Notes: generated by a model not told the origin, from the sequence alone. Shown: positions 3,001 to 47,539, counted from the first letter of the stretch. The stretch: 64,000 bases of DNA from Candidatus Pullichristensenella avicola (GCA_018711655.1 DVIA01000043.1:14130-78129), one strand, 5' to 3'. Made by a program: numbers and translations.

Positions 3001-5850
3001 TTCAAGCCTGGCGTTTTCGCCGATCGTGATGCGGCGATCGCTCTCCGCCTCGTACAGACCGACCTCGAGGCTCATGTCGTCCTCGCCTTCGGAGAGATCG
3101 TCGTCAACGATGGACAGGGAACCTTCGATCACGACGTCGTCCGTGCCGACGGCCTGCAGAAGGATGTTCTTGCCGGTCACTTCCCCATTGACCTGAATGC
3201 GCTTGCCGGTAACGAGCACGTTCATGCCCGCGGCCAACAGACGATCAATGGTGATCTCGCCGTCATCGCCAGCATCGTATACGATATTGGTGAACAACAG
3301 ACCATCGTCCGGAATCGTCAATTCGGAAACGAAGTCCAGCACCTCGTAGGGATTGACGCCCACCAGTTCCGTCAGCGGCAGGCCGTCCGGACCCAGCACG
3401 GGCAGGCCGGCGTCATCCAGTACCGGAACTTCCTGGTAGGACTCATACTTGGTAACAAGCTCGGTGATCTCATAATTGGTGAACGGAAGCGCCTCGCCCG
3501 AAAGCGCCTCGCCTTCCAGGCGGATGGTGCGCTTGTTCTCCAGGGCGTCGGTAAAGGCCTCGATGCCAAGCGCCGCAATTTTAAACTGCTTCTCAAAACT
3601 CAGCGTCAGCGCGTCGCCGGCGATGTCGCCCAGGAAGCTCAGTTCCGCAAGCGCCTCAATGGTCACTTCAACAGAATCGGCGTCCATCTGCGCGGTGATG
3701 CGCTCGGCCTCGTCGATTCCATCGTTGAGCTTGCCGGTGATGTGCAGACGGTCGAAGCCGTCGTTGCCCAGCACTTCGGTGGCAATGCCGCCGATGGTGG
3801 AGAAGGCCGCGGTGGTATCGACGGTAATGACATCGTCGCCCAAACCACCATCCAGACTAAAGTTTGTTTTCTGATATTCGGTGGCGCCGGCGCCGGCAAT
3901 ATAATCCGTAAGGAACTGCACGACTTCCTGCCCGAGCGAGAGCGTGCGAGCGCCGGAAATGTTGATGCGGTCGTTGCCTTCGCCGCCAAGAATGCTCACG
4001 TCTGCCGCGCCGATGTCTACGCCAAAGCCGTATTGCAGCGTCAGGGGCGCATTCGGGTCGCTGCCGATAACCGGCGTGCCAGGCGCCAGATCGGTCGAAT
4101 CCACAAGCGTGAAGTCCAGCGTGTCGTTGCCCAGGCCGAGGTTGATGTTGACCTTGAGCGGCTCCGCATCCAGGGCGGCGTCGATGACCATATCGTCGAT
4201 GCTGTCGAGCAGGTCGAGCATCGTTTCCTTCAAGCCAGCAGGCAGGTCCTGAATGCTCTCGACACTGGTAATTCCCTCAAAGGCCGTCTGCCAGCCTTCC
4301 TGCAGGTCGATACCAAATTCGAGGCTCGGATTCTTCTCCGTGCGGACACTCACGCGGTCGTCGCCCTTGCCCGTGTCAACCGTGACCGAGCCGGTAACGT
4401 TGCTTACGTTCATGTCCACAACGTCGTCCTGCGTCGTGCCATAATAGGTAACGCTCTGAGCGCCCTCGACGTTGACCAGGCCGCGCGTGGAAAGATAGAG
4501 ACCCGCAAGCACAACGTCAAGGCCGTCGAAGTCGATGTTGATGTCGCCCTCAACCTGCGCGCCGCCATCGCCTTCAGCGGTGAAGGAGCCATCCTCGGCG
4601 ATCGCGTCTTCGGCGACGATATTGATCTGTATCTGGCTCTGCTGCTCTTTGTTCAGCCCCAGGATCTCCGCAATCAGATCAGCAAGGGGCGAACCGCTGC
4701 CCGAATCATTGCTGATGTTCAGGCCGCCCTGGTAGATGCCGTCGGAAACGACGATGGTCGCCGTTTTTACAGCCTGCTGCTCATCCGGAGATTCATACAG
4801 GCTCTTGATATATGTAAGAGCGCTCTGCATCGCGTTGGTGATGGCGTTGTTCTCAGCATCGTTGCTGAAGGTGATATCCGCGCCGATCTCCTTAATGTAC
4901 GTGCTGCCCGCCGGAATGGCATAGGCTTCCACGGTGTCATCCTGGCCCACGGGCGGTTCATCGCCAGCGGCCAGAATCTGGGCGCCCTCCGGCAGGATGG
5001 GCGCGTTGTCGCCGGTAAGCTGATAAGCGGCCTCGAGCGCGCTCATATCCGGAATAACGACTCCGGTCTGTTCCTGGGTATCGCCTTCGCCGGCCGTTTC
5101 TCCTTCTTCGCCGGAGGTCTCGCCCTCGGACGTTCCTTCGCCCGGCGTTCCCTCTTCGCCGGTCTCCTCGGAAACTTCGCCCTCGTCCGGAATCAGCGTC
5201 TCTTCAATTTTGCCCTCTTCATCCTCCGAACCGGTTTCGCCGCCGGCTTCCTCGCCGGAGGTTTCGCCCTCGGACGTTTCCTCGCCCGGCCTTCCCTCTT
5301 CGCCGGTCTCCTCGGAAACTTCGCCCTCGTCCGGAATCAGCGTCTCTTCTTCTTCGGAAGAAGTTTCTCCCTCATCAGAGACTTCGGTCTTTTCCTCTTG
5401 ATTTCCCGGCACTCCGTCTACATTTTCAGCGCCCTGCTGCGATCCGGTCTGCGCGCCATCCAACGCGCCCGCATCGTCGTTTCCGCTGACAGAAGCGCCA
5501 TCAGGAATACTGCTCGACTCGGAGGAGCCGCCCGCAACGTTGCCGCCATCTCCGGATTCGCTTCCCGCGCCAGGCGCAGAATATCCGGCAGAGGCACCCT
5601 GCACAACATTCGCGTATGCAGCGGCCACAGGCGGACTCTTTGCCGCGGCGGACGTTCCGCCGGCATTTCCCTGCGACGCGGCGACTTCGCCGGTCGCCGA
5701 AGCCGAAACTGGCGGCGCAGAACTTTCCTCGGCCGTTGCGAACACCGCGCTGGCAAACAGCGCGAGCATCATCACCAAGCAAAGGATGCTGACGCCGTTC
5801 TTGGTCAGCCTACGGAAATCGCGCCTCTTTTTCTCAATCAGCTTCTTCAT
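1..5850 (-). CDS. giant secreted/cell-surface repeat protein; N-terminus in window, C-terminus runs off the left edge (at least 1950 aa)
   Basis: Absent from the supplied ORF track because there is no stop inside the window. On the reverse strand, GGGGAGG-7nt-ATG gives a start at 5850. My translation begins MKKLIEKKRRDFRRLTKNGVSILCLVMMLALFASAVFATAEE (basic N-region plus hydrophobic segment, i.e. signal peptide or anchor). Eight spot translations further along (codons starting at 4380, 4152, 4020, 3864, 3780, 1230, 1020, 480) and the final 20 codons (60..1) are all in phase with this start and protein-like; I did not scan every codon for stops. Contents: an acidic E/G/T/S tandem, dispersed GxG(N/D)Dx(I/L/V) motifs, G/A/V-rich strands (MQVDASAVGAGVGVGGAFGIGIFNDSAAAA), a QQQQQQ linker and a helical tail (...IERIRNMVVTALNIKFGNPG at the window edge). 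Confidence 0.85.
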   Translation of the reverse strand, partial: MKKLIEKKRRDFRRLTKNGVSILCLVMMLALFASAVFATAEESSAPPVSASATGEVAASQGNAGGTSAAAKSPPVAAAYANVVQGASAGYSAPGAGSESGDGGNVAGGSSESSSIPDGASVSGNDDAGALDGAQTGSQQGAENVDGVPGNQEEKTEVSDEGETSSEEEETLIPDEGEVSEETGEEGRPGEETSEGETSGEEAGGETGSEDEEGKIEETLIPDEGEVSEETGEEGTPGEGTSEGETSGEEGETAGEGDTQEQTGVVIPDMSALEAAYQLTGDNAPILPEGAQILAAGDEPPVGQDDTVEAYAIPAGSTYIKEIGADITFSNDAENNAITNAMQSALTYIKSLYESPDEQQAVKTATIVVSDGIYQGGLNISNDSGSGSPLADLIAEILGLNKEQQSQIQINIVAEDAIAEDGSFTAEGDGGAQVEGDINIDFDGLDVVLAGLYLSTRGLVNVEGAQSVTYYGTTQDDVVDMNVSNVTGSVTVDTGKGDDRVSVRTEKNPSLEFGIDLQEGWQTAFEGITSVESIQDLPAGLKETMLDLLDSIDDMVIDAALDAEPLKVNINLGLGNDTLDFTLVDSTDLAPGTPVIGSDPNAPLTLQYGFGVDIGAADVSILGGEGNDRINISGARTLSLGQEVVQFLTDYIAGAGATEYQKTNFSLDGGLGDDVITVDTTAAFSTIGGIATEVLGNDGFDRLHITGKLNDGIDEAERITAQMDADSVEVTIEALAELSFLGDIAGDALTLSFEKQFKIAALGIEAFTDALENKRTIRLEGEALSGEALPFTNYEITELVTKYESYQEVPVLDDAGLPVLGPDGLPLTELVGVNPYEVLDFVSELTIPDDGLLFTNIVYDAGDDGEITIDRLLAAGMNVLVTGKRIQVNGEVTGKNILLQAVGTDDVVIEGSLSIVDDDLSEGEDDMSLEVGLYEAESDRRITIGENARLEAAESVDILASLALSEGYLPIPDLPGGILPADFELQPFVLKMGYATIDVLGEIIAEGAVRIGSELDILVNTTNGVASVVIPVAVGVAIGEATVTVAGDALIQAGSNAHLDAYSDTSITADTVGGVPKFAISLAVALVDTHVTVKDNARIEADGSVDLIANAAVTTGSFSTGKPAKTLATKPATGVYIAGTFIQNNTSVEVLDSASILALAGDIRLDSTSRVHANTVTVNIPADAEASGAISTTKAIGVVKKLLGIKTDIAGALRNLISGATGIQGFLDQAVQVVDKPQKPGKQFAGAFSLAYIDNDNAARIATVGDIQAAGAVDVFARGEAYAELRADASLYRTPPIDPVTGLTPQDAPQKAIGTAVGVSYFNNNNVAEITGGAITAQSLFVDADMGHTGSSVIIKAGHVPSTADFGLGGAISVHLATAINNALVGKGASYTINGGQVGVDSTGTGRYVTVGDASGKRERRSITLGGIVIPFEPANQMTANSTGVGAGIAVGLVGVDVTARIEDGVTFGNLPLTSAWVNASYSGTEHIEAAAGAAGGTSIVPVLALGVGGVYTQAYFGTANEEIDASGDVSVTANGQVERTMQVDASAVGAGVGVGGAFGIGIFNDSAAAALERSASARNVMVDSQSISRFDQKVIASSKGATPTTSPTGPKTPDELQQQQQQESQASTGTQDQIDETLTGQSGAGGSNVSALNQEGQADQIADLNTQTASALAASIGTNNVNSAAISTLAQDRPRAQTQEGSVQVAAALALNILKNDSSARVGDDTAIEADGDVAVTSLVDTDAVISANASATNSTTGVGVGVAINYVRYNNTAYLGASNLRANTLTVRADILEAEDKASIEAIFADLMEYFADTEGVGMLLNALVKAKGYASLEEMLANDAEFKEAYEAIDASDAAALEAMIIDLLAAQFSDETVDTSKAVFGALANSVVNSFVEMLTEPTFLLSLLTGEAQGKMDELFAKYGLTAEVAIERIRNMVVTALNIKFGNPG
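5109..5349. repeat. 144-nt (48-aa) tandem duplication inside the giant CDS (acidic linker)
   Basis: The 97-nt blocks 5109-5205 and 5253-5349 are near-identical, with a 144-nt offset. They encode EETLIPDEGEVSEETGEEG(R/T)PGE..TSEGETSGEE twice. Confidence 0.9.
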
Positions 5851-5901: not shown

Positions 5902-7317
5902 CTATTCTACGATCTGTTCAGCGTCGATCTGTTCGCCCTCCAGCAGTCGTTGGCTCTCGTAATACTGCGCAAGCTGCCAGAGTATGTTGGTGGCGGCGTC
6001 TTTGAGCGTTTGCTCATCGCCGCTGGTAAGCGTCATTTCCATATCGTCGAGCGCGCTGTCATAATCCAGCAGATTCACATAACACACGCCGCGATTGTAG
6101 TAACAGAACTGTGTGAGATAGCCCTGCTCGATGGAACTGGTGAAATCCGCCACCGCTTCCTCATAACGCCCCAACGAGAGCAGGCTTACGCCGCGGTAGT
6201 AGTAGCTGCCCACCAGTTCGGGCCCGTTTTCAATGGCCAGCGTGAGATATTCGACAGCCTCTTCATACTGGCCCAGCGACATCGCGGAGGCTCCCATTTG
6301 CTGATAGACGGAGCCGAGCGAAGCGCTAGCGTCCGGAAGCGCCAGAAGGCGTTCGCCATAGGCGATCACAGCCTCGTAGTTTTCGGAAATATACGAGCAC
6401 GTCACAAGCTGTTCCAGCGTCGCCGCCTCAGAATAGCCGCGCTCGAGGGCGCCTTCAAAATCCGCAATCGCCAGTTCATAGTTGGCAAGCTGCATCTCGC
6501 AGCAACCGCGCAGGAAGTAAGCGGTCGCCAGCAAGGCTTCCATGGAGGCGTTCTGCCCGTCGGCGTCCGCCTCGGAGGACGTTTCAGAGACTTCGGTCTG
6601 TTCGTGTTCGTCAATATAGGCGGTGAAGCCGTCGCGCGCGGTTTCGTATTCGCCCGCGAGCAGCTGGCAGCGCAGCGCCTCCAGGCGATAAACGCTCTCC
6701 TGCGGGAACTGCGTGTAAATCGCCTCATAGCACTCCGCGGCTTCGGCGTAACGCCCCAGCACTTCGTAGATCTGCGCAAGATCCTGACGGACGGCCGCGT
6801 CGTCGGGCACGAGGGCAAGATAACTTTCCAGGTCCCGCGCCGCCGGCAGATAGGACTGCTGAGCCAGTTCGATCTGCGCCCGCAAAAGCAACGCCTGCGA
6901 AGATTCCGGGTCGTATTCCAGCGCGCTTTCAAGCGCGGCGAGCGCATCGTCGTAATTCTGCATCAGCATATACAGCGAAGCCTTGCGCAGCATCAGGTCG
7001 GCCATGAGCGCGCCGTCGCTTTCATCCGCAAGGGCGGAACACTCGTCAAGATAGCCGAGCGCCTCCTCGTAGTTGCCCTGGCCGATGGCGATGTTGGCAA
7101 GCTGGTAGTAATCATCGTATGTCTGCGGTTCGTCGATCTCGTCCTGAAGAATAGAGTAAATCCTCGAAAGCGGATCCTCTTCGGCAAGCACAGCGGCGAA
7201 TTGAGAAATCGCGTCAAACTGCGTCACGACCGCCGTGCACAAAAGCACGATGGCGATGACCAGAGAAACCACGCGCAAAATGGGCTTTTTGCCTTTTTCA
7301 TTTCGTCCTGCTTTCAT
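5902..7317 (-). CDS. membrane-anchored TPR-repeat protein
   Basis: Track ORF is 5902..7335. I prefer the ATG at 7317 (GGGAGG-8nt-ATG). The N-terminus MKAGRNEKGKKPILRVVSLVIAIVLLCTAVV is basic plus one TM helix. The rest is made of 34-aa-type A/Y/L/E repeats (e.g. YYYRGVSLLSLGRYEEAVADF, GQGNYEEALGYLDECSAL) typical of TPR. It lies 51 nt upstream of the giant CDS on the same strand. Confidence 0.8.
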   Translation of the reverse strand: MKAGRNEKGKKPILRVVSLVIAIVLLCTAVVTQFDAISQFAAVLAEEDPLSRIYSILQDEIDEPQTYDDYYQLANIAIGQGNYEEALGYLDECSALADESDGALMADLMLRKASLYMLMQNYDDALAALESALEYDPESSQALLLRAQIELAQQSYLPAARDLESYLALVPDDAAVRQDLAQIYEVLGRYAEAAECYEAIYTQFPQESVYRLEALRCQLLAGEYETARDGFTAYIDEHEQTEVSETSSEADADGQNASMEALLATAYFLRGCCEMQLANYELAIADFEGALERGYSEAATLEQLVTCSYISENYEAVIAYGERLLALPDASASLGSVYQQMGASAMSLGQYEEAVEYLTLAIENGPELVGSYYYRGVSLLSLGRYEEAVADFTSSIEQGYLTQFCYYNRGVCYVNLLDYDSALDDMEMTLTSGDEQTLKDAATNILWQLAQYYESQRLLEGEQIDAEQIVE

Positions 7318-7443
7318 GTGCCGTTCCTCCCACATACCAAAGTCTGTTTTTGTCGGGTTTCCGTATATTTTAGACTTCGGTCTTTTCCTGTAAAGCGCTC
7401 CATCTGCGCAACGCTCACAGATATATTTCCTTTCGTTGGATCG

Positions 7444-7459
7444 CGTTTATCGATAAACG
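7444..7459. promoter_or_regulatory. perfect 16-nt palindrome CGTTTATCGATAAACG in the 5' leader of the TPR/giant-protein operon (candidate operator)
   Basis: Self-complementarity checked base by base. AACGATA recurs at 7456-7462 and 7469-7475. The site lies roughly 50-60 nt downstream of the predicted transcription start. Confidence 0.4.
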
Positions 7460-7513
7460 ATAAAAATTAACGATACACACATTAAATTATATCATACACT
7501 ATTCTAGCATTAC

Positions 7514-7542
7514 ATTATATTCCAATTTCAGTCGCTTGTCAA
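7514..7542 (-). promoter_or_regulatory. consensus sigma-A promoter for the TPR/giant-protein operon
   Basis: Reverse strand reads TTGACA (7542-7537), a 17-nt spacer, then TATAAT (7519-7514). Both hexamers are perfect, in an AT-rich stretch upstream of the TPR gene. Confidence 0.7.
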
Positions 7543-7868
7543 GCGATTTTGGACGATATTTTAAGTTTTTTGTTGATTTCAGCGCTCTACATAACATTCG
7601 TAATCATTCCATAACTTTTGCATGGTGTACCCCGGCAAATCAGTCTGCCATCCCGTTTCCACCCTGTCGCCAGCGGCACACCTTCCCGCTCATCGCTGCG
7701 CCGGGCAATCACTTTCCTCTCCCGGCAGAGGAGCAAATGAAAACGCGGCCTTCCTCCTGCCTCTGTTTGGAGATATCCTGGAAAAAGGGCCGCGCATAAT
7801 ATATGTTCTATATGAGTTTCTACCTATTTATTATACATCCGCTGAACCGGCCTGTCTCATGGTCGCGG

Positions 7869-9005
7869 TCATTTCAGACCAGATTCTGTTTTCTGATCCT
7901 GCTCGCGCCGATTCACATCTTCCCGCAAAAGTCTGTATGCCGTGGCCGCCAACGGAACGCCCAGCAACATGCCGACAATGCCCAACACGGAACCTCCAAC
8001 CGTGATTGCCGCCAGCACCCACAGCGCCGGCAATTTCAGCGAGGCCCCAACCACGCGCGGATAGACCAAATTCCCCTCCAACTGCTGCAGAATTACAATG
8101 AACACCAGGAAAAAAGCCGCCTCGATCGGGGAAACCGTCATAATCATGATCGCGCCGACAATCGCGCCTATATATGCGCCGGCGATGGGGATCAGGGCCG
8201 TTGCACCCACAAGCGTACCGACCATCGTCGCATATGGGAAACCGAGCAGCAACATGCCCAGCATGCACAGGGAGCCGAGAATTATCGCCTCTATACACTG
8301 GCCGACGATATATCGATGGAAACAGTCGTCCATCACGCCAAGCACATACCGCACGCGCGCATGCCATGCTGGCCGCAGATATGTGCGCATCAGACGAGAC
8401 ATCTGCGCGCAAATGCGCTCCTTGCCGTAGAGCAGGTATACTGCAAACACCACCGCCATCACCAATGTGGTCGCGCCGGAAAACACGCCGGATACCGTGA
8501 CCACCACAGAGTTCATCAGCCCGCCGAAACCACCGCCCAGCCAATCGACAACGCGCGTTACGCCGTCCTGCCAGCCGGCGTCTACGCTTGTCAACTCCTC
8601 CGGCAGCAACTGGGCAATTTCCGGATAACGCATCAGTTCCGCATAACCTCGCTCCAAAAGCGCCGGCACGTCGTTGAGCAAAAGCTGCAGGCTTTTTATA
8701 AGTTCCGGGACAATCAGTAGAATTACCAGAGACACCAAGAGAAGAATCGTCAGGATGGAAGCAAACAGACATACGCCACGCCGCGTGCGCGCAGCAAAAC
8801 GACCGCCGCGGCGCGGAAAGTAATGCCTCTCATAAAACCGCATCATTCGGTTTACAAGGTAGGCGATTCCCGCGCCCAAAACCAGCGGCCACAGTCCGCT
8901 GAGGAATACGCCGAGCAGCCGCGCTACGCTTTCCCAATAATGCACGGCAAGATAAACAAGCACGATGGTAATTCCAACGCGCAGACAGGCTTTCCACTTC
9001 AACAT
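7869..9005 (-). CDS. AI-2E family transporter (PerM/UPF0118-type permease)
   Basis: Multiple hydrophobic segments and the C-terminal motif ILQQLEGNLVYPRVVGASLKLPALWVLAAITVGG characteristic of this family. I prefer the start at 9005 (AGAGGTG-5nt-ATG; MLKWKACLRVGITIVL); the track start 9044 is an alternative. Confidence 0.8.
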   Translation of the reverse strand: MLKWKACLRVGITIVLVYLAVHYWESVARLLGVFLSGLWPLVLGAGIAYLVNRMMRFYERHYFPRRGGRFAARTRRGVCLFASILTILLLVSLVILLIVPELIKSLQLLLNDVPALLERGYAELMRYPEIAQLLPEELTSVDAGWQDGVTRVVDWLGGGFGGLMNSVVVTVSGVFSGATTLVMAVVFAVYLLYGKERICAQMSRLMRTYLRPAWHARVRYVLGVMDDCFHRYIVGQCIEAIILGSLCMLGMLLLGFPYATMVGTLVGATALIPIAGAYIGAIVGAIMIMTVSPIEAAFFLVFIVILQQLEGNLVYPRVVGASLKLPALWVLAAITVGGSVLGIVGMLLGVPLAATAYRLLREDVNRREQDQKTESGLK

Positions 9006-40415: not shown

Positions 40416-41621
40416 TCACACGCCGCGGTAATTTTTGGCCAATCCGCCCTCAGCCGTCTCGCGATAGCGGCCGGAAAGGTCGCGGCCGGTTTCGTACATG
40501 GTTCGCACAACGGTATCAAGCGATATTTTGCGCGTGGCGGTCAGGAAATTGGCGATGCGCACGGCGTTGATGGCGCGCATGGCGGCAACGGCGTTGCGCT
40601 CGATGCAGGGGATCTGTACAAGGCCGCAGATGGGGTCGCAGGTAAGGCCGAGATGGTGCTCCAGCGCCACCTCAGCGGCGTACTCGATCTGATCCACGCC
40701 CATTTCAAACAGTTCGCCCAGCGCCGCCGCGGCCATGGCGCAGGCCGAACCGATTTCCGCCTGGCAGCCGCACTCCGCGCCGCTGATGGAGGCGTTGGTT
40801 TTGATCAGATCGCCGATCAACCCCGCCACGGCCAGCGAGCGCAAAACGCGCTGCTGCGATATGCCGCGCTGCTCCCGCATGTAGCGCAAAACGCTGGGCA
40901 GCACGCTGCAGGCCCCGCAGGTGGGCGCGGTGACGATCACTCCGCCGTCGGCGTTCTGCTCGCTGATGGCAAAGGCGTAGGCGCAGACGATGCGATCCTC
41001 GCGCGTCTCCGGGCTTTCGTCGATATGCTTCTGGTGGAACAGATACTGCGCCTTGCGCTCCACCTTCAGGCCGCCGGGCAGCACGCCGCGACGGGAAAGG
41101 CCTTCATCGCAGGCGGCGTTCATCGTCCGCCAGACTTCGGAAAGAAAATCCAGTATCTCCTCGCCCTCGCGTTCAAGCACGAAATCGCTCAGGCGCAAAT
41201 TGCGGGATTTGCATATCTCTGCGATCGCGCGGAAGCTGTTTTGCGCGTATACCTCCGCCTTTTCCGCCTCCGTCTCGCCCGGGTAACGCACGTCGCCCCC
41301 GCCCACGCTCAAAGCGCGCAGAAATCCCGTTTGCCGCGCGCCTTCAAAGGCCAGAAAATCCAGCGTGTTGGGATGCTCGAGCGAAAACTCCGCCGTGGGG
41401 ACCCATTTGATTTCCGTCCTGACGGGCGCGAGCGTTTTCATCAGCACGCGGTCCGTGCCGTGGCCCTCGCCGGTTTTGGCCAACGACCCGTACAGGCGCA
41501 CCTCAAAGCGGTCGGCCTCGGGATGCTCCTGCTTAAAGCGCATGGCGGCGCGTTCCGGCCCCATCGTGTGCGAACTGGACGGGCCGCGGCCGATTTTGTA
41601 GATTTCCCGGATGGATTGCAT
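40416..41621 (-). CDS. sdaA: L-serine ammonia-lyase, iron-sulfur-dependent (single-chain)
   Basis: [26 protein letters not shown] resembles the SdaA N-terminus (FKVGIGPSSSHTVGP). The alpha-type C-terminal half contains a [13 protein letters not shown]-like segment. Confidence 0.88.
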
Positions 41622-41882
41622 ATTTCCGCCTCCTTCCCCGCCCTTCTATCATACCATGCCCGGAAGGGGATTTCCATACGCATACAAAACAAAATTTCAT
41701 TGCCCGTCTTTGCCGGGGCGATGCGGGGCAAGCGGTTGCAGGCATTGGCGGGGCCGCCGGCGGCGAAGCAGGGAGATTCAGACGGCAAACGCGCCGCTCC
41801 GAAGCCGTTTGAAACGGTCATGAAAATGATAAGGACGCCGTTTTGGCGGATTCCCCGAAAATCAGGACGGTTCCATGGACGC

Positions 41883-41916
41883 AAAAATCCCGCTACCATC
41901 GAAAGGGCAGCGGGAA
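41883..41916 (-). terminator. rho-independent terminator after the WG-repeat gene
   Basis: Reverse strand reads TCCCGCTGCC-9nt-GGTAGCGGGA followed by TTTTT. Confidence 0.75.
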
Positions 41917-41925
41917 ATGATCGTA

Positions 41926-43689
41926 TCATTCGCCGTCTATGAGATTCAGAGCCAAGAGCAACTCGTGGGTAACTGTCCCCGTCTCGCTTAAGCCATTGTC
42001 TTGCTGGAATGCAGAAATGGCTGCCTTTGTATTCTTTCCCGCAATGCCGTCAGGCGTTCCGCAATCGTAGCCTGCTTCGTTCAGCGCCGCTTGGACGCTC
42101 TGTATCGTTTCTTGGTCGGTGTATTCCATGAGCATCCTTCGCGCTTCAGCCTCAGCCTTGCGCGCTTCTTCCTGTTCGGCAATATCTTCTTCCCAGCCGG
42201 GCTGAAGTTCATCTCGGGAAACAACTGTAATATTCCCATCTTTTATAAGAGAGAAATAGCCTTCATTGTATGAAATGGCATCATATTCACAGGGAATAAT
42301 AATGTCGCCTGTTCTATCGATTACACCTTGCTTCCCGTCTTCAAAACCATTTCTTCCTTTCGTGATAAAAACAGCGACACCTTCATTGAAGGAATATGCA
42401 TGATCATATTGGAATGGCAAAACGATTTCTCCATTTGTATCAATATAACCGTATTTATCACCATTTTTTACAGGCGCGAGGCCTTCAGAGAAAGTGCCTC
42501 CGTCATAGTCAGTGATAACTATTTGGCCCGTTTTGTCAATATAGCATCTTTGGCCATCTTTGATTGCATAAGAAAGCCCATCGCTGAATCCATAGATGTT
42601 ATCGAACTCAGCAGGAATAACCATCTCCCCTGCTTTATCTATGCAACCATATTTCTGTTTCAACCAATCGTAGCTAGGAGCCAAACCATCCTCAAAATAA
42701 CACTTATCTCCATAACCGAAAGTAGGTATGACTAAGGTGCCTGTTTTATCAATATACCCGCACACTCTATCTTCTACAGAATATACACAAGCGAGCCCTT
42801 CGCTAAAGTCATAGGCAGCATCAAATTCGCAAGGAATAGCCAACGCGCCAGTAGAGTCTATGTAGCCGAATTTTCCGTCTTTTTTGACAACGCTCATGCC
42901 ATCCTTAAATTCTCCTATGGATTCATACTCGCCAAATGGAATAACAACTTCTCCATTTGTATCAATTACTCCCCATTGACCGTCTTTGCATACGGGAGCA
43001 ATTCCTTCACAAAAATCATAGGCAGTACTGTAAATGCAGGGAATGACTATCTCCCCCAAAGTATTGATGTATCCGTGAAGATTCATAATGTTCCAGAATT
43101 GGCACATGCCATCGCTGAATCTCCCAGTATTCTTGGCCGGCAATAGATCACGTAGTCCCGATGAATCCTCAATTATGAAGGAGTACTTACTGATGGGGTT
43201 CTCCTTCTCAGTAAAAACAAACCGTATTGTTCCAGGTTCGCAAAGGGCGGTGAGAACTGTTATGCACTCTTCAGTGTCAACATAAATTTGATCTTCACCA
43301 CTTGGCATGAATGCGCTGAAATAATATTTTTCTCCAGCGCCATCCATCATGGCCACGTCATATTCTAAACTTCTGGAGTATGAGTTTTTCACTACATTAT
43401 TCCCATATTCGATCAGTTTGAATGAAATGCTTATATCATTATAGTTATATCCTTTGTCAATATAGATATATGTTAATAATTCTGAATCCGTCGTCGCGCT
43501 GTTGCTGAATTTGCCTACAATTGGTTCCTTGTTGCTGATATAGTATTCGTCGGTCGGCAAATCAAACTCATCCACATAGGCGCGCTTTTCCCAAATACCC
43601 GTATCTGTTGTCGTTTCAGATTCTGCCCAAACCACAGCGCTGCTTATCAACAGCGCGAAAACCAACAGAGCGGCGGCAAATTTCTTCAT
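41926..43689 (-). CDS. secreted WG-repeat (KWG-type) protein with C-terminal peptidoglycan-binding domain
   Basis: Signal peptide MKKFAAALLVFALLISSAVVWA. About eight repeats of the type GKFGYIDSTGALAIPCEFDAAYDFSEGLA. C-terminus IQSVQAALNEAGYDCGTPDGIAGKNTKAAISAFQQDNGLSETGTVTHELLLAL (PG_binding_1-like). AGGAGGAAGGAAA-ATG. Confidence 0.85.
   Translation of the reverse strand: MKKFAAALLVFALLISSAVVWAESETTTDTGIWEKRAYVDEFDLPTDEYYISNKEPIVGKFSNSATTDSELLTYIYIDKGYNYNDISISFKLIEYGNNVVKNSYSRSLEYDVAMMDGAGEKYYFSAFMPSGEDQIYVDTEECITVLTALCEPGTIRFVFTEKENPISKYSFIIEDSSGLRDLLPAKNTGRFSDGMCQFWNIMNLHGYINTLGEIVIPCIYSTAYDFCEGIAPVCKDGQWGVIDTNGEVVIPFGEYESIGEFKDGMSVVKKDGKFGYIDSTGALAIPCEFDAAYDFSEGLACVYSVEDRVCGYIDKTGTLVIPTFGYGDKCYFEDGLAPSYDWLKQKYGCIDKAGEMVIPAEFDNIYGFSDGLSYAIKDGQRCYIDKTGQIVITDYDGGTFSEGLAPVKNGDKYGYIDTNGEIVLPFQYDHAYSFNEGVAVFITKGRNGFEDGKQGVIDRTGDIIIPCEYDAISYNEGYFSLIKDGNITVVSRDELQPGWEEDIAEQEEARKAEAEARRMLMEYTDQETIQSVQAALNEAGYDCGTPDGIAGKNTKAAISAFQQDNGLSETGTVTHELLLALNLIDGE
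41947..42083. repeat. 137-nt repeat copy A (3' coding module, PG-binding domain)
   Basis: Identical to 44079-44215 except for 2 positions (aligned by eye, base by base). Confidence 0.9.
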
Positions 43690-44013
43690 TTTCCTTCCTC
43701 CTGCAATTCAGGGGCGATTTGAACCGCCCCAGTCCCTAAGCTCCTCTCGCAACTTCCTTGAACGCATGCCAACAACCGACGGCGCACTCTTGTTCCGGCT
43801 CAGTTTCCCATTGCCCGCATACCCAACCCCTCCATTTACATTTCTTGCCAATATTGTACCCACCCCCCGAAAATTTCAGTAGAAATTCATATGTATTTAA
43901 TGTTAATGTGATGATTTCAGATAATTGTTTTGATGAAAAGCGTTTCGTGTATGTTTTGTTAAAAAACGCTTCATTTTGCCTCATGTCCAAGGAAAGAAAA
44001 TGATCGTCCTTAC

Positions 44014-44051
44014 AGAAAAAGCCCCCACTATCCTTCAAAGGATAATGGGGG
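44014..44051 (-). terminator. rho-independent terminator after the second PG-binding gene
   Basis: Reverse strand reads CCCCCATTATCC-6nt-GGATAGTGGGGG (one mismatch) followed by CTTTTT. Confidence 0.7.
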
Positions 44052-44060
44052 TTGGTTATA

Positions 44061-45611
44061 TTATTCGTCTACGATGCCCAGAGCCAAGAGCAACTCGTGG
44101 GTAACTGTCCCCGTCTCGCTTAAGCCATTGTCTTGCTGGAATGCGGAAATGGCTGCCTGTGTATTCTTTCCCGCAATGCCGTCAGGCGTTCCGCAATCGT
44201 AGCCTGCTTCGTTCAAAGCGGTCTGCACACTCCTGACAGTATCTCTATCATTGTATTCCCTCGAAGAAGCCGTTTCTTCCGCACTGGCGGCGCCGCTTTC
44301 TCCCTTGACGCGGTAATTGTATTGATAGTCACGGCCGTCTGACAATTTCATCACAAGCAACAGGTTTTCGTCGCTCGTACTCGCCTCTTCCGGAAGTTCT
44401 ATCAGGGCATGGACGTGACAAGTTTCCAACGGAACCGCAGCCACATCGTTGCTCCAGTGGCTAAACTGATTATCTCCGTCATTTACGACCACAAACCCGG
44501 AATATCCGTAACCATCTCCATAAATGGCAATAACCGTGAACAGTTCCCCAATTCGAATATCCCGCTTCATCAGGTTTTTCAGGCTGCCCTCTGCATGCAG
44601 ATATACTTTTCCGGATTCCGCCGGATACGATTCGTAAAATCCACTCGTATTGCTGGGCAGCAATTCATAGGTCAGTTCAACGTTTTCAAGCGTGAATTCG
44701 TAGTCATTGGTTGTGACCGTTTCGCCCAGCGCCAGCATTGAGGCGGTTTGCGCATCCGTCGTCTCAGAGGACGCCGCATCCGCCCGGCTTACCATATCCT
44801 CATTTCCGGGAACGATCTCGATGTTCATCGTCCCGGCGTCAAATGTAATTGTGGCGATATGCGTGCCGCCATCGGAAACAACGTATTCATCCGCCGTTTC
44901 TTCAACGGTGAAACCGTCATCCTGCAGCGCATTGATATATGCATTGTAAACGTCCTGCGCATCTTCATTTTCATTTTTCAGCGTATAGCTATAGCTGATG
45001 CTGACCACTTGATTGTTGACAGAACGCCTGCCGGAACTGGATTGCCTTACGTCAATGTAGCTCTCGGGCGTTGGCAGGATCGGGCAATCTTCATAATATG
45101 TGATTTCCTTCTCAAGTTCTCCCAACGCTATACTGATCGGCCCCAATGTAAACAATGCGGAATTATCATCGCTGTCCTCGACCGTAAACGTAAGGCTCAA
45201 CGTTTCCAGATCATTATAGCTTGCAATATCAAGATCATCATAGAGCAGCCATATGTAGGACTTCGCCTTGGACCCTGCATTGACTGTGGCCTTGCTGCCG
45301 CCCATTACTGAGTTGTTTACGCTCCAGCCGTTCGCGACGCCGTTGTAGCAAACCCTAATGTTCTTATCTGAATCGTTTTCGATGATCGCCTCCATCCGCA
45401 AAAACTGGAGGCCTTCATCTACAACCTCTCCGGTGAGATATACATTTATTCCGTCCTGCTCAAATATGTCCAGCCTTTCTCCAGGGATAAATTCCAGCGC
45501 GTCGGTTTCTGTGCCGGCCTCTGCTTCCGGCGCGACTTCGGCGATGCACGCAAGCGAATTGCATATCAACAGCAAAGCGATCAGAACATGCGCAAACCTC
45601 TTCATTTTCAT
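44061..45611 (-). CDS. secreted protein with C-terminal peptidoglycan-binding domain (N-terminal and central parts uncharacterized, Ig/DUF4352-like by impression only)
   Basis: Signal peptide MKMKRFAHVLIALLLICNSLACIA. C-terminus VRSVQTALNEAGYDCGTPDGIAGKNTQAAISAFQQDNGLSETGTVTHELLLAL. AGGAGGTATGAAA-ATG. Confidence 0.8.
   Translation of the reverse strand: MKMKRFAHVLIALLLICNSLACIAEVAPEAEAGTETDALEFIPGERLDIFEQDGINVYLTGEVVDEGLQFLRMEAIIENDSDKNIRVCYNGVANGWSVNNSVMGGSKATVNAGSKAKSYIWLLYDDLDIASYNDLETLSLTFTVEDSDDNSALFTLGPISIALGELEKEITYYEDCPILPTPESYIDVRQSSSGRRSVNNQVVSISYSYTLKNENEDAQDVYNAYINALQDDGFTVEETADEYVVSDGGTHIATITFDAGTMNIEIVPGNEDMVSRADAASSETTDAQTASMLALGETVTTNDYEFTLENVELTYELLPSNTSGFYESYPAESGKVYLHAEGSLKNLMKRDIRIGELFTVIAIYGDGYGYSGFVVVNDGDNQFSHWSNDVAAVPLETCHVHALIELPEEASTSDENLLLVMKLSDGRDYQYNYRVKGESGAASAEETASSREYNDRDTVRSVQTALNEAGYDCGTPDGIAGKNTQAAISAFQQDNGLSETGTVTHELLLALGIVDE
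44079..44215. repeat. 137-nt repeat copy B
   Basis: See copy A; there are 2 mismatches in 137 nt. Confidence 0.9.
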
Positions 45612-45726
45612 ACCTCCTGAATTTTTTAAGGAAGATTGATCCGCTCAAACCGCCTCGATTCCCAAGTCTCAAAACACCATTGCCCGCATACGCATTCCCT
45701 CCACTCCAGTTTTTGCCAACATTATA

Positions 45727-45735
45727 CCCCCCCCC
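45727..45735. repeat. homopolymeric C9 (G9 on the coding strand) abutting the -10 box of the 44061..45611 gene
   Basis: Reverse strand reads ...TTGAATTTTGC-GGGGGGGGG-TATAAT. The paralogous leader has GGGGGGTGGG-TACAAT (43869-43878 next to 43863-43868). Confidence 0.85.
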
Positions 45736-45911
45736 GCAAAATTCAATCGAATATTCCATGTATTTAGGGTTAACATGCCGCAATTTGAAGAAGATTATTT
45801 TGATTCGGCATACTGCGTGAAAAATTGTCCGGAAGGCGCTGCATTTCCTGCGTATCCATCGAAATGCCTCTGCCAAAGAGGAAGGGCGCGTGCGCTATAA
45901 AGCGGGCGAGC

Positions 45912-45950
45912 AGAAAAGGAAAAAGCCCGAAAACGCAGTGTTTTCGGGCT
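45912..45950 (-). terminator. rho-independent terminator after the QueG-like gene
   Basis: AGCCCGAAAAC-5nt-GTTTTCGGGCT, followed on the reverse strand by TTTTTCCTTTTC. Confidence 0.8.
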
Positions 45951-45965
45951 TAAGGGCGAAAATCA

Positions 45966-46838
45966 TCAAACAGCTTCCAGCCGTCGCGCCGCCCACTTCG
46001 CGTAGGGGCCGACGAGCGGGTCGCCCTCCAGGGCGCGGATGGCGGGAAGGTGCTCGCGCCTGCCCAGGCAGGCGGCGACCAGGCAGGCGCGGATGCGCAT
46101 GCGCGCTTTGCGCGCGTAGTTCGCGCCGATCAGCGGGGCCAAAGCATGCGTGTCCCCCGCCAGCAGGCGGTCAAGGGAAATGGCGGCGCGCACGTCCTCC
46201 GGCATGGGGACGGGGCGGACGGCGGCGTTGCGCGGGCAGGCCCGTTGGCAGAGGTCGCAGCCCCAGAGGCTGTTGCCGGTGAGGGCCATGGCCGCCTCGG
46301 GCATGGCCGGGGCGTTTTTCGCCGCCAGCGCGCGCAGGCAGCGGTCGGTATCGACATAACCCGCGCCGTCCAGGGCCTGAACGGGACAGGCGCGCAGGCA
46401 GCGGCCGCAATCCTTGCAGGCGTCGTCCAGGGGCGGTTCCTCCGTCCAGGCGCGGGGCGGGGCCTCTTCTTTGCTCCAGGCCGCCTCGACGGCGAAGCAG
46501 GTGCCCATGCCCTCGATGGCGACAAGGCCGTTGCGCCCGCGCCTGCCGATGCCGTAGCCGGCGAGGATCGGCTTGAGCGGCAGCCGAAAAGCCGGACGTT
46601 CGCAATTGGCCCTGACATATTCATAGAGCGTTTGCGAGGCGAGGTAGTACGCCGAAAGCGTCGCTTCGCCCATTTGCGATACAAAGGGCGCGTAGGGCAA
46701 CACGAACAGGCGCACGCAGCGCGCGCCCTCGGGCGCGTCGGCGCGCAGGCCGCCGGTGAAGGGCGTGGGCCGCGCGGCCACGTCCCGCCTCCACCGCTCC
46801 AGCGGCGGAATGGGCACAAGATATTCGCGCATCTCCAT
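45966..46838 (-). CDS. 4Fe-4S double-cluster protein, epoxyqueuosine reductase (QueG)-like but short (290 aa)
   Basis: CKDCGRCLRACP and CDLCQRACP ferredoxin motifs, with a HEAT-like tail (DPLVGPYAKWAARRLE). The ATG at 46838 shares one base with the DUF554 stop (TGATG). The 520-aa track ORF is an over-extension through the DUF554 gene. Confidence 0.6.
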   Translation of the reverse strand: MEMREYLVPIPPLERWRRDVAARPTPFTGGLRADAPEGARCVRLFVLPYAPFVSQMGEATLSAYYLASQTLYEYVRANCERPAFRLPLKPILAGYGIGRRGRNGLVAIEGMGTCFAVEAAWSKEEAPPRAWTEEPPLDDACKDCGRCLRACPVQALDGAGYVDTDRCLRALAAKNAPAMPEAAMALTGNSLWGCDLCQRACPRNAAVRPVPMPEDVRAAISLDRLLAGDTHALAPLIGANYARKARMRIRACLVAACLGRREHLPAIRALEGDPLVGPYAKWAARRLEAV

Positions 46839-47539
46839 CACAACAGCTTCCCCAGCCACTCGGCAATGGGAAAATAGGCGCAGGGCACGAGCATGGCCGG
46901 CAACATGTTGCCCACGCGCAGGCGCTCCTTCGTCACGCCCAACATGTTGAAGGAAAGCCCGATGATGAGCAGCGAGCCGACCGCCGACATCTCGCCGATC
47001 AGCGCATCTGTAAGAAAGGGCGCGAGCACGCCCGCGAGCGCGGCGATGCCGCCCTGATAGACGGTCAACGGAATGGCGGAAAAGATCACGCCCGCGCCAA
47101 ATGTGGAGGCGAAGATGACCGCCGAAACGGCGTCGATCACCGACTTGGCCAAAAGCGTATCGGGATTGTTGCGCAGCCCCGCCTCGAGGGAGCCGACGAC
47201 CGCCATCGCGCCGACGGAAAACAGCAGCGTGGCGTTGACAAAGCCCTCGGCAAAGCCGCCCTCGCCGTGGGAAAAGCGCGCCTGCGCCCACTCGCCCAGG
47301 CGGTCCAGGCCGCGCTCGATGCGCAAAAGCTCGCCCGCCAGCGTGCCGACCACCGCCGAGACAATGACGATCAGGACGTTGGAGGTCTTGATCGCGCCGG
47401 AAACGCCGATCACCAGCACGCACAGCGCCAGCGCCTGATTGAGCGCCGTCTGGTATTTCCTGGGAATGCCGCCGCGCAGCAGCGTGCCGAGCAGGCCGCC
47501 GACCACCACGCCGGCAAAATTGACCCATACGCCGAGCAT
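46838..47539 (-). CDS. DUF554-family membrane protein
   Basis: MLGVWVNFAGVVVGGLLGTLLRGGIP... and SLEAGL..NPDTLLAKSVIDAVSAVIFAST are family-typical. GGGGAGGGGAGACG-ATG. Confidence 0.8.
   Translation of the reverse strand: MLGVWVNFAGVVVGGLLGTLLRGGIPRKYQTALNQALALCVLVIGVSGAIKTSNVLIVIVSAVVGTLAGELLRIERGLDRLGEWAQARFSHGEGGFAEGFVNATLLFSVGAMAVVGSLEAGLRNNPDTLLAKSVIDAVSAVIFASTFGAGVIFSAIPLTVYQGGIAALAGVLAPFLTDALIGEMSAVGSLLIIGLSFNMLGVTKERLRVGNMLPAMLVPCAYFPIAEWLGKLL

Follow-up and report, generated by a model that had tools for sequence, protein, structure and literature searches.

Where do two A+T-rich genes for surface proteins come from when their surroundings are GC-rich, and why do they share their two ends and not their bodies? 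The question is raised by a locus of Candidatus Pullichristensenella avicola (GCA_018711655.1 DVIA01000043.1:14130-78129), which belongs to a genus of chicken-gut Christensenellales known from metagenome-assembled genomes (MAGs). The stretch of 64,000 nucleotides that has been analysed is referred to as the window and all the coordinates are counted from its first letter. Between sdaA and a queG-like gene, the window holds an island of two tandem genes, called here gene A and gene B. The first-pass annotation, made from the DNA of the window by itself, had regarded this island as foreign DNA and as a shuffling locus for proteins displayed on the cell wall. Comparison with related genomes and metagenome contigs (given L numbers here) shows the foreign origin of the island, its derivation from the cargo end of an element, the loss of its self-mobility and its mosaic variation, which probably arises by recombination at the conserved frames that enclose the gene bodies. 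The reading preferred in the current analysis, with a probability of roughly 0.78, is that the interval is an islet without an integrase, acquired by horizontal transfer and put together from the cargo end of small integrative elements that form a family in gut Clostridia. The features that delimit the island are the following.

41926..43689, minus strand: gene A, an open reading frame (ORF) of 587 residues with a signal-peptide-like N-terminus
44061..45611, minus strand: gene B, an ORF of 516 residues with a signal-peptide-like N-terminus
41888..41915, minus strand: terminator-like hairpin with a T-run, 3' of gene A (hairpin scan)
44022..44051, minus strand: terminator-like hairpin with a T-run, 3' of gene B (hairpin scan)
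45923..45951, minus strand: terminator-like hairpin directly 3' of the queG-like stop codon, within the stretch that is absent from empty sites and kept in L093
41679..45973, no strand: insert relative to the empty site, 4295 bp, absent at the queG-like/sdaA site of three sister species (blastn)
41679..41887, minus strand: spacer from the gene A terminator to the sdaA promoter, with a guanine plus cytosine (GC) content of 0.57, richer than the insert; 92.6% identity in the one-cassette locus L001

A 1-kb profile gives a GC content of 0.41-0.50 at about 41.5-46.0 kb and of 0.60-0.70 on either flank. The overall GC content is 0.43 in gene A and 0.50 in gene B. The GC content of third codon positions (GC3) is 0.42 in gene A and 0.57 in gene B, and ranges from 0.75 to 0.87 in tsf, rpsB, sdaA, the queG-like gene and the genes for DUF554, OGG and rpmA. 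Composition and codon use of the interval deviate in the manner expected of a genomic island. The A+T-rich interval between GC-rich flanks and the two tandem minus-strand cassettes, each with a signal peptide and a terminator, had been described in the first-pass annotation, and the profiles, the ORFs and the hairpins bear out both descriptions. The foreign origin it had suggested is likewise upheld by the deviant composition, by a site that is empty in three sister species and by remnants of a mobile element.

As judged by the relatives of its SdaA, the window comes from within Candidatus Pullichristensenella or from directly beside it. The empty site has been identified in L003, L004 and L005, which share 88% amino acid identity with the window in SdaA. 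In these species 23 nt separate the queG-like stop codon from the sdaA promoter, and the blastn homology of the flanks ends at window 45974 and restarts at 41678. The island is therefore absent from the syntenic site of close relatives, as is characteristic of genomic islands. Two contigs of one MAG (L093 and L001; 95% amino acid identity in SdaA) carry orthologs of gene A, which are called WG genes after the repeats in their products. L093 runs from the queG-like gene through a terminator and the promoter with its leader into the first part of a WG gene, and L001 from the last part of the WG gene through the spacer to sdaA. Taken together they indicate a single WG cassette between the queG-like gene and sdaA. 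The metagenome contigs L081 and L082 contain both the cassettes in the same layout as in the window. The interval from sdaA to the queG-like gene thus has 0, 1 or 2 cassettes among close relatives; it is not syntenic with the same two genes in all of them, and its GC and codon profile departs from that of its neighbourhood. In P. stercorigallinarum (L002) the site is filled by a different sequence of 187 nt, of which BLAST aligns only the last ~20 nt, on the sdaA side, to the window; further short stretches matching the spacer 41679-41887 have been recognised by eye only.

It could be argued that the two genes are native, vertically inherited and AT-rich for reasons of function, and that L003, L004 and L005 have deleted them. 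In keeping with this view, the window has no mobility gene and no attachment-site (att) repeat, and the spacer next to sdaA has a native appearance. The spacer is probably native intergenic DNA and not a part of the foreign insert, as is weakly suggested by its composition, its counterpart in L001 and the short matches in L002. A native origin of the genes themselves is nevertheless highly unlikely. No local gene comes close to their GC3 values, three species have one and the same compact junction at the empty site, and the frames of the two genes are made up of truncated genes of an element that is intact at another locus in a sister species.

This element has been recognised in L083, another contig of P. 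stercorigallinarum, and in the metagenome contig L095. Both encode a WG/PG_binding_1 ortholog behind the same G-tract and TACAAT box that precede gene A. In these two loci a ribosome-binding site (RBS) and ATGCGG open an intact ORF of 74 residues (ORF1), which is followed by ORF2, a helix-turn-helix (HTH) protein of 61 residues (HTH_38, 28.4 bits). The WG gene is succeeded by a tyrosine integrase (PF00589, 66.6 bits; PHROG 1, E 2e-41). In L083 the integrase is followed by tRNA-Thr with its 3' end toward the integrase, and the L095 contig stops inside the integrase gene. The upstream region of gene A aligns to the element at 90-94% in three parts, namely the intergenic DNA, the promoter with the start of ORF1, and the last ~50 nt of ORF2 with the hairpin and the RBS. 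The upstream region of gene B has kept the promoter and an ORF1 stub slightly longer than that of gene A. The stubs of both cassettes have TGA after six codons. Of mobility genes the island retains remnants only, comprising the truncated ORF1 and ORF2 and the promoter. The two upstream frames are organised as follows.

43690..43983, minus strand: upstream frame of gene A, including element-derived intergenic DNA, aligned to L083, L095 and L093
43859-43868, minus strand: G6TG3 tract in the gene A frame, abutting a TACAAT box at 43853-43858
43820 to 43800, minus strand: truncated ORF1 of the gene A frame, from ATG (43820) to TGA (43800), with its RBS
43736-43784, minus strand: 3' remnant of the HTH-ORF2 in the gene A frame
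43711-43730, minus strand: conserved GC hairpin preceding the RBS in the gene A frame
45612..45809, minus strand: upstream frame of gene B, including element-derived intergenic DNA
45727-45735, minus strand: G9 tract in the gene B frame, abutting a TATAAT box at 45721-45726
45689 to 45669, minus strand: truncated ORF1 of the gene B frame, from ATG (45689) to TGA (45669), with its RBS

The GC hairpin (GGGGCGG...CGCCCC) is situated between the ORF2 remnant and the RBS of gene A. It is present in every WG cassette examined (L083, L093, L095 and L096) and is not followed by a T-run.

The upstream block common to both genes extends over ~110 nt, and a degenerate core of 22 nt within it occurs exactly 2 times in the window against 0.01 expected. 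Such conservation might suggest a cis-regulatory RNA, either a riboswitch or an attenuator with a leader peptide of six codons, that co-regulates the two wall proteins. The RBS and the mini-ORF of six codons, whose TGA has an equivalent position in both copies, would suit this suggestion, as would the hairpin that precedes the RBS of gene A in all WG cassettes. We consider it very improbable, since the same ATG opens an ORF of 74 residues in the intact elements and since the truncation junction of L096 is a different one, as decay rather than a selected leader predicts. A scan of 41000-47000 against Rfam at E <= 1 gave no match other than two unrelated sub-threshold hits. The leader aligns to ORF1 and ORF2 and has no Rfam match; it is therefore a gene remnant and not a dedicated regulatory RNA. 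Each cassette had been credited in the first-pass annotation with a promoter and a leader of its own. The promoter region can be retained, with the promoters of both cassettes predicted solely from conservation, and the dedicated leader has to be given up in favour of a truncated ORF1, joined in gene A by the 3' end of the HTH-ORF2.

The ORF1-ORF2 module is represented at 23 loci in Lachnospiraceae, Acutalibacteraceae, Oscillospiraceae and other Clostridia. A complete element has been identified in L113 (645-5814) as 5.1 kb of low-GC DNA. It is bounded by a perfect direct repeat of 47 nt (645-691 and 5768-5814) which corresponds to the 3' part of tRNA-Trp. It encodes two ORFs of unknown nature, a divergent DEAD/ResIII helicase, an ORF1 of 74 residues, the HTH ORF2 and a tyrosine integrase of 310 residues. 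The order in intact elements is a divergently oriented superfamily 2 (SF2) helicase, the G-tract promoter, ORF1, the HTH ORF2, a variable cargo slot, the tyrosine integrase and the 3' end of a tRNA gene. Found in the variable slot are proteins with a signal peptide, a lipoprotein, membrane proteins of the SHOCT or zinc-ribbon type, or else resolvases. Among the ORFs of the elements, comparison with Pfam and PHROGs has recognised only helicase, integrase and resolvase models, and no relaxase, replication or capsid-related genes. As judged from these sequence comparisons, the family matches no named family and is previously unnamed.

Decay of such elements has been observed at other loci as well. 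In L096 the WG gene is kept, the deletion junction of ORF1/ORF2 is a different one and the integrase is internally deleted. In L105 (2157-8892) two units are arranged in tandem at tRNA-Trp. The first of them is decayed and is comprised of ORF1, a cargo gene and an integrase stump of 39 residues with an att copy at 3488-3704. The second is complete, with a resolvase, a helicase, ORF1 and an integrase. The tandem integrase-less cassettes of the window would fit the recurrent decay that is seen in L096 and L105.

The window itself encodes no tRNA gene over its 64 kb. The integrases of L083 and L113 have no match in it by tblastn at E <= 1, a homolog of the helicase has not been found across it by the same method, and neither flanking direct repeats nor a target duplication have been detected at the island boundaries. 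The marks of an active element, an integrase gene together with att repeats or a tRNA target, are thus lacking in the window. The first-pass annotation had also seen no integrase, tRNA or flanking repeats here. That description is accurate, and the island is yet derived from an element that bears an integrase. No match of the island to PLSDB plasmids has been obtained by blastn, and an exact-pattern scan of IMG/VR viral contigs with the promoter/leader pattern has also yielded no match.

The two genes of the island have in common their frames and little else. In BLASTP only the last 78 residues of their products align (74% identity), besides a weak match of the signal peptides. PG_binding_1 (PF01471) is assigned to both the C-termini, which agrees with the earlier description of unrelated bodies that end in the same peptidoglycan-binding module. 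At the level of DNA there is a core of 137 nt at 41947-42083 in gene A and 44079-44215 in gene B, both on the minus strand, with 2 mismatches (42013/44145 and 42027/44159) and sharp boundaries. The terminator of gene B is ~80% identical to that which follows the WG gene of the intact element (L083 2164-2410 versus window 44259-44013), and its RBS and signal-peptide region align to the element WG gene at 77%. By this resemblance of its frames to the element WG gene, gene B has the appearance of a WG cassette frame into which another body has been placed.

Comparison of alleles suggests that exchange takes place at these frames. In six WG alleles the first ~70 and the last ~75 residues are near-invariant and the overall identity is 48-59%. 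The exception is P0033, in which a body of the window type (91% identity) is joined to a C-terminus of the element type. The DNA identity of the WG genes is 90-94% over the leader and the first ~200 nt of coding sequence, then falls below the blastn threshold and is back in the last 200-400 nt. Recombination explains this pattern better than selection alone, because the non-coding DNA and the ends of the coding sequence are conserved to the same extent. The cores of the window are 98.5% identical to each other over 137 nt, as compared with 93-95% to the L001 ortholog and 82-85% to the element copies. This higher identity between A and B than to the orthologs is taken as a sign of concerted evolution.

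The window differs from L081 (15,663 nt) and L082 (11,071 nt) only at 44145 and 44159, and at these positions gene B of L081 and L082 has the bases of gene A. The pattern is suggestive of a short conversion tract, with repeat collapse in the assembly as the alternative. One low-coverage Logan contig (run X3) joins the body of gene B to the downstream flank of gene A via the shared core (41946/44079); it could be a recombinant from which gene A has been deleted, or a chimeric contig. All the evidence from Logan and the sequencing runs comes from assembler contigs. The locus can thus be called a shuffling locus, as originally proposed, in the sense that cassette number and body alleles vary. A dedicated mechanism does not follow, and the support is only for ordinary homologous recombination or gene conversion at the conserved frames.

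Programmed antigenic variation, in which phase-variable G-tract promoters are combined with frequent gene conversion that swaps the bodies, would be a more elaborate account of the same variation. A homopolymer tract abuts the -10-like box in both window copies (G9 and G6TG3) and in all the other copies, with lengths that differ between loci: 7 in L096 and L097, 9 after GT in L093, 10 in L095 and at least 10 in L083, where the contig ends in the tract. The variable cassette number and body alleles, the two positions that are the sole differences from L081 and L082, and the Logan joint of the gene B body with the gene A flank would also be in line with a programme. The G-tract lengths are however the same in the window, L081 and L082, which are three near-identical assemblies, and silent donor cassettes have not been found. 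The two-site difference and the single low-coverage joint are explicable as assembly artefacts of the 137-nt repeat. Programmed variation is accordingly regarded as improbable. It is also seen that the G-tracts appear to break short-read assemblies.

The following course of events is proposed for the derivation of the island from element cargo. A WG-repeat/PG_binding_1 gene occupies the cargo slot of the element at tRNA-Thr in a sister species. The window has two such cargo units, one behind the other, in the interval from the queG-like gene to sdaA, and either unit retains the promoter region of the element and an ORF1 stub. The helicase and the integrase have been lost from both the units, leaving DNA that is no longer self-mobile. 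The 5' frame (promoter, leader and signal peptide) and the 3' frame (peptidoglycan-binding module and terminator) would serve as homology arms, and ordinary homologous recombination and gene conversion at these arms would account for the pairing of the cassettes, for the polymorphism of 0, 1 or 2 cassettes and for the mosaic structure of the alleles.

Several points weigh against this derivation. It gives no account of how the cargo reached the queG-like/sdaA site, where there is no tRNA gene as a target. Comparison of the tRNA-Thr region of L083 with the window and with the 5' end of L095 has revealed no att-like repeat beyond chance 10-13-mers. A close relative of gene B has not been found inside an intact element, and the frames alone tie gene B to the element. 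The 137-nt repeat is known from short-read MAGs, in which near-identity can be inflated by bubble collapse. With the sigma-70 consensus, a -35 hexamer is not recognised at a spacing of 16-18 nt from the TACAAT and TATAAT boxes. Contigs from two chicken-gut RNA sequencing (RNA-seq) runs cover parts of both genes at at least 95% identity, which is weak evidence of transcription as the libraries are labelled "metagenomic RNA-seq" and may contain DNA.

The products of the two genes, taken as cargo of the element, have the following domain organisation. The limits of the first three domains of gene B are those of an AlphaFold2 (AF2) model.

43624-43689, minus strand: signal peptide of gene A
43105-43626, minus strand: N-domain of gene A, ~170 residues, no Pfam model
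about 42220-43104, minus strand: WG beta repeats of gene A, ~7, followed by a charged linker
41947-42111, minus strand: PG_binding_1 of gene A, residues 527-581
45123-45500, minus strand: beta-sandwich domain 1 of gene B, preceded by the signal peptide
44814-45086, minus strand: alpha/beta domain of gene B
44310-44741, minus strand: beta-sandwich domain 3 of gene B
44079-44246, minus strand: PG_binding_1 of gene B, residues 456-511

In gene A, Pfam assigns the WG_beta_rep family (PF14903) with 242 bits over 7 repeats, above the gathering threshold, and PG_binding_1 with 51.9 bits against a cut-off of 23. The L083 ortholog has 8 WG repeats. A literature search has yielded mention of the WG repeat family in a single modelling paper only. 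The N-domain has no match in Pfam, even at E <= 10 with the isolated domain, and Foldseek gives nothing below E 0.001 for it in PDB and BFVD. Its AF2 model has a predicted local distance difference test (pLDDT) of 91.3 and a predicted template modelling (pTM) score of 0.85. The family of this extracellular domain comprises 975 cluster representatives at E <= 0.001, in which the domain stands by itself or is combined with WG repeats, RCC1 repeats, PG_binding_1, SH3_3, or Ltp and LRR_5. A tblastn comparison of gene A with phage genomes has given partial matches to the WG repeats (25-36% identity) in four unannotated records, besides the peptidoglycan-binding domains of endolysins. A more distant N-domain/WG/PG_binding_1 protein of 703 residues is encoded in L124 (883-3680) beside a divergent cI-like HTH_3 repressor and an ORF of 79 residues. 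The surroundings of this gene, on a short contig, look like the regulatory context of a mobile element. Among the more distant N-domain/WG proteins, P0048 and P0051 are encoded on short contigs.

The PG_binding_1 domain of gene B scores 53.6 bits against the same cut-off. The AF2 model of gene B (pLDDT 81.5) is comprised of a beta-sandwich, an alpha/beta domain, a second beta-sandwich and a three-helix module. The helices of the last (456-468, 482-494 and 505-510) are modelled with pLDDT > 90 and correspond to the three-helix fold of the family. Residues 291-432 of gene B match PDB 5bxg by sequence (E 4.5e-25, 33% identity) and by Foldseek (E 1e-15, TMt 0.91). Foldseek also reports 9a4z, a model of YxkC (E 1e-7, TMt 0.51), and 3cfu, YjhA (E 5e-4, TMt 0.51). 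The hidden Markov model (HMM) of DUF4352 (PF11611) has no match to gene B or to its isolated domains, even at E <= 10. PF11611 is precomputed for just two gene B homologs, P0005 and P0017, possibly on another domain. The homologs of the gene B domains are mostly lipoproteins or secreted proteins with many different combinations of domains, and the nearest homologs of the body share 36-64% identity over parts of the protein only.

Both the products are predicted to be exported by Sec signal peptides and to be retained on the wall through PG_binding_1. In the proposed mechanism this three-helix C-terminal module would hold them non-covalently on the peptidoglycan, so that gene A would display its body of WG beta repeats and gene B its chain of beta-sandwich and alpha/beta domains. 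The first-pass annotation had listed wall-acting effectors, next to phage receptors and adhesins, among the possible functions. PG_binding_1 is indeed common in endolysins and L,D-transpeptidases, and the modules of the island match phiKZ gp144 (PDB 3bkh) and an L,D-transpeptidase (PDB 8da2) by sequence at E 5.6e-06 to 1.4e-04. No catalytic domain is however assigned to gene A or gene B by Pfam, even at E <= 10 on the separate domains. The modelled bodies are beta-sandwich and alpha/beta folds whose best matches are uncharacterised beta-sandwich proteins, and the N-domain of gene A is without a structural match. It is most unlikely that the proteins are hydrolases or other effectors acting on the wall rather than proteins of binding or display.

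PADLOC defence models give no hit to gene A or gene B. Our best guess of their role is a modification of the envelope that benefits the element or its host, either in adhesion or in the exclusion of phage or other incoming DNA. Exclusion at the level of the envelope is plausible because the cargo slot is enriched in envelope proteins and because a DUF4352 domain has been tied to phage defence. The DUF4352 protein Mpr of M. smegmatis has been linked experimentally to a non-abortive phage defence (PMC12596739), which serves here as a lead only. A more far-reaching suggestion, doubtful as it is, may be added. The frames may be portable homology arms by which tRNA-targeting mini-elements of ~5 kb and chromosomal landing loci exchange the bodies of surface proteins. 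They would constitute an integrase-independent cassette platform for proteins displayed on the wall in chicken-gut Christensenellales, possibly with phase variation of the G-tracts and with cargo that excludes phage or incoming DNA.

From this locus it can be seen how a chromosome comes to retain what a small mobile element has carried. At several loci the genes of mobility have degenerated independently of each other; the cargo genes for secreted, presumably wall-anchored proteins persist, are present in duplicate and undergo recombination. In the uncultured genus Pullichristensenella the interval represents a strain-variable surface locus that could matter for susceptibility to phage, for recognition by host immunoglobulin A (IgA) and for adhesion. 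Current understanding is not overturned by a fairly ordinary case of captured mobile-element cargo. The by-products of the analysis may be more useful than the island itself, namely an unnamed family of elements in Clostridia and a widespread N-domain with neither a Pfam model nor a match to a solved structure.

The neighbours of the island as assigned by Pfam are sdaA, a 4Fe-4S QueG-like protein and a DUF554 protein. A second dip in GC content is seen in the window at 7001-8000, with 0.49 against ~0.58-0.60 nearby, and might represent another atypical segment.

Among known systems, the PG_binding_1 modules of endolysins and L,D-transpeptidases belong to the same HMM family and have the three-helix fold predicted here. 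Unlike in those enzymes, the module of the island is found at the C-terminus, where it is fused to WG repeats or beta-sandwich domains, and no catalytic domain goes with it. The match of residues 291-432 of gene B in PDB is CD630_09570 of C. difficile (5bxg), an uncharacterised beta-sandwich protein. The DUF4352-like proteins YxkC and YjhA of B. subtilis show a weaker match of fold to gene B, and the HMM of DUF4352 itself is without a hit.

The pneumococcal choline-binding proteins PspA and PspC are mosaic paralogs that have a shared leader and wall anchor and different bodies, and that recombine. The island resembles them in its conserved signal-peptide end, its conserved C-terminus with a predicted non-covalent binding to the wall, its hypervariable or unrelated middle and its recombination. 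It differs from them in that the anchor is PG_binding_1 and not choline-binding repeats, and in that the genes are tandem cargo of a mobile element.

The other comparison is with decayed tRNA-targeting islands, integrative and mobilisable elements (IMEs) and the 'moron' remnants of prophages. Unlike these, the copy in the window is not located at a tRNA gene, and att repeat, integrase and excisionase are all missing from it. The island has nevertheless intact relatives with the integrase next to a tRNA gene in L083 and L113, the latter with att sites in the form of direct repeats, and accretion and decay are documented in L105 and L096. It shares with the decayed islands an atypical composition, absence from close relatives and a cargo of surface proteins with their own promoter and terminator.

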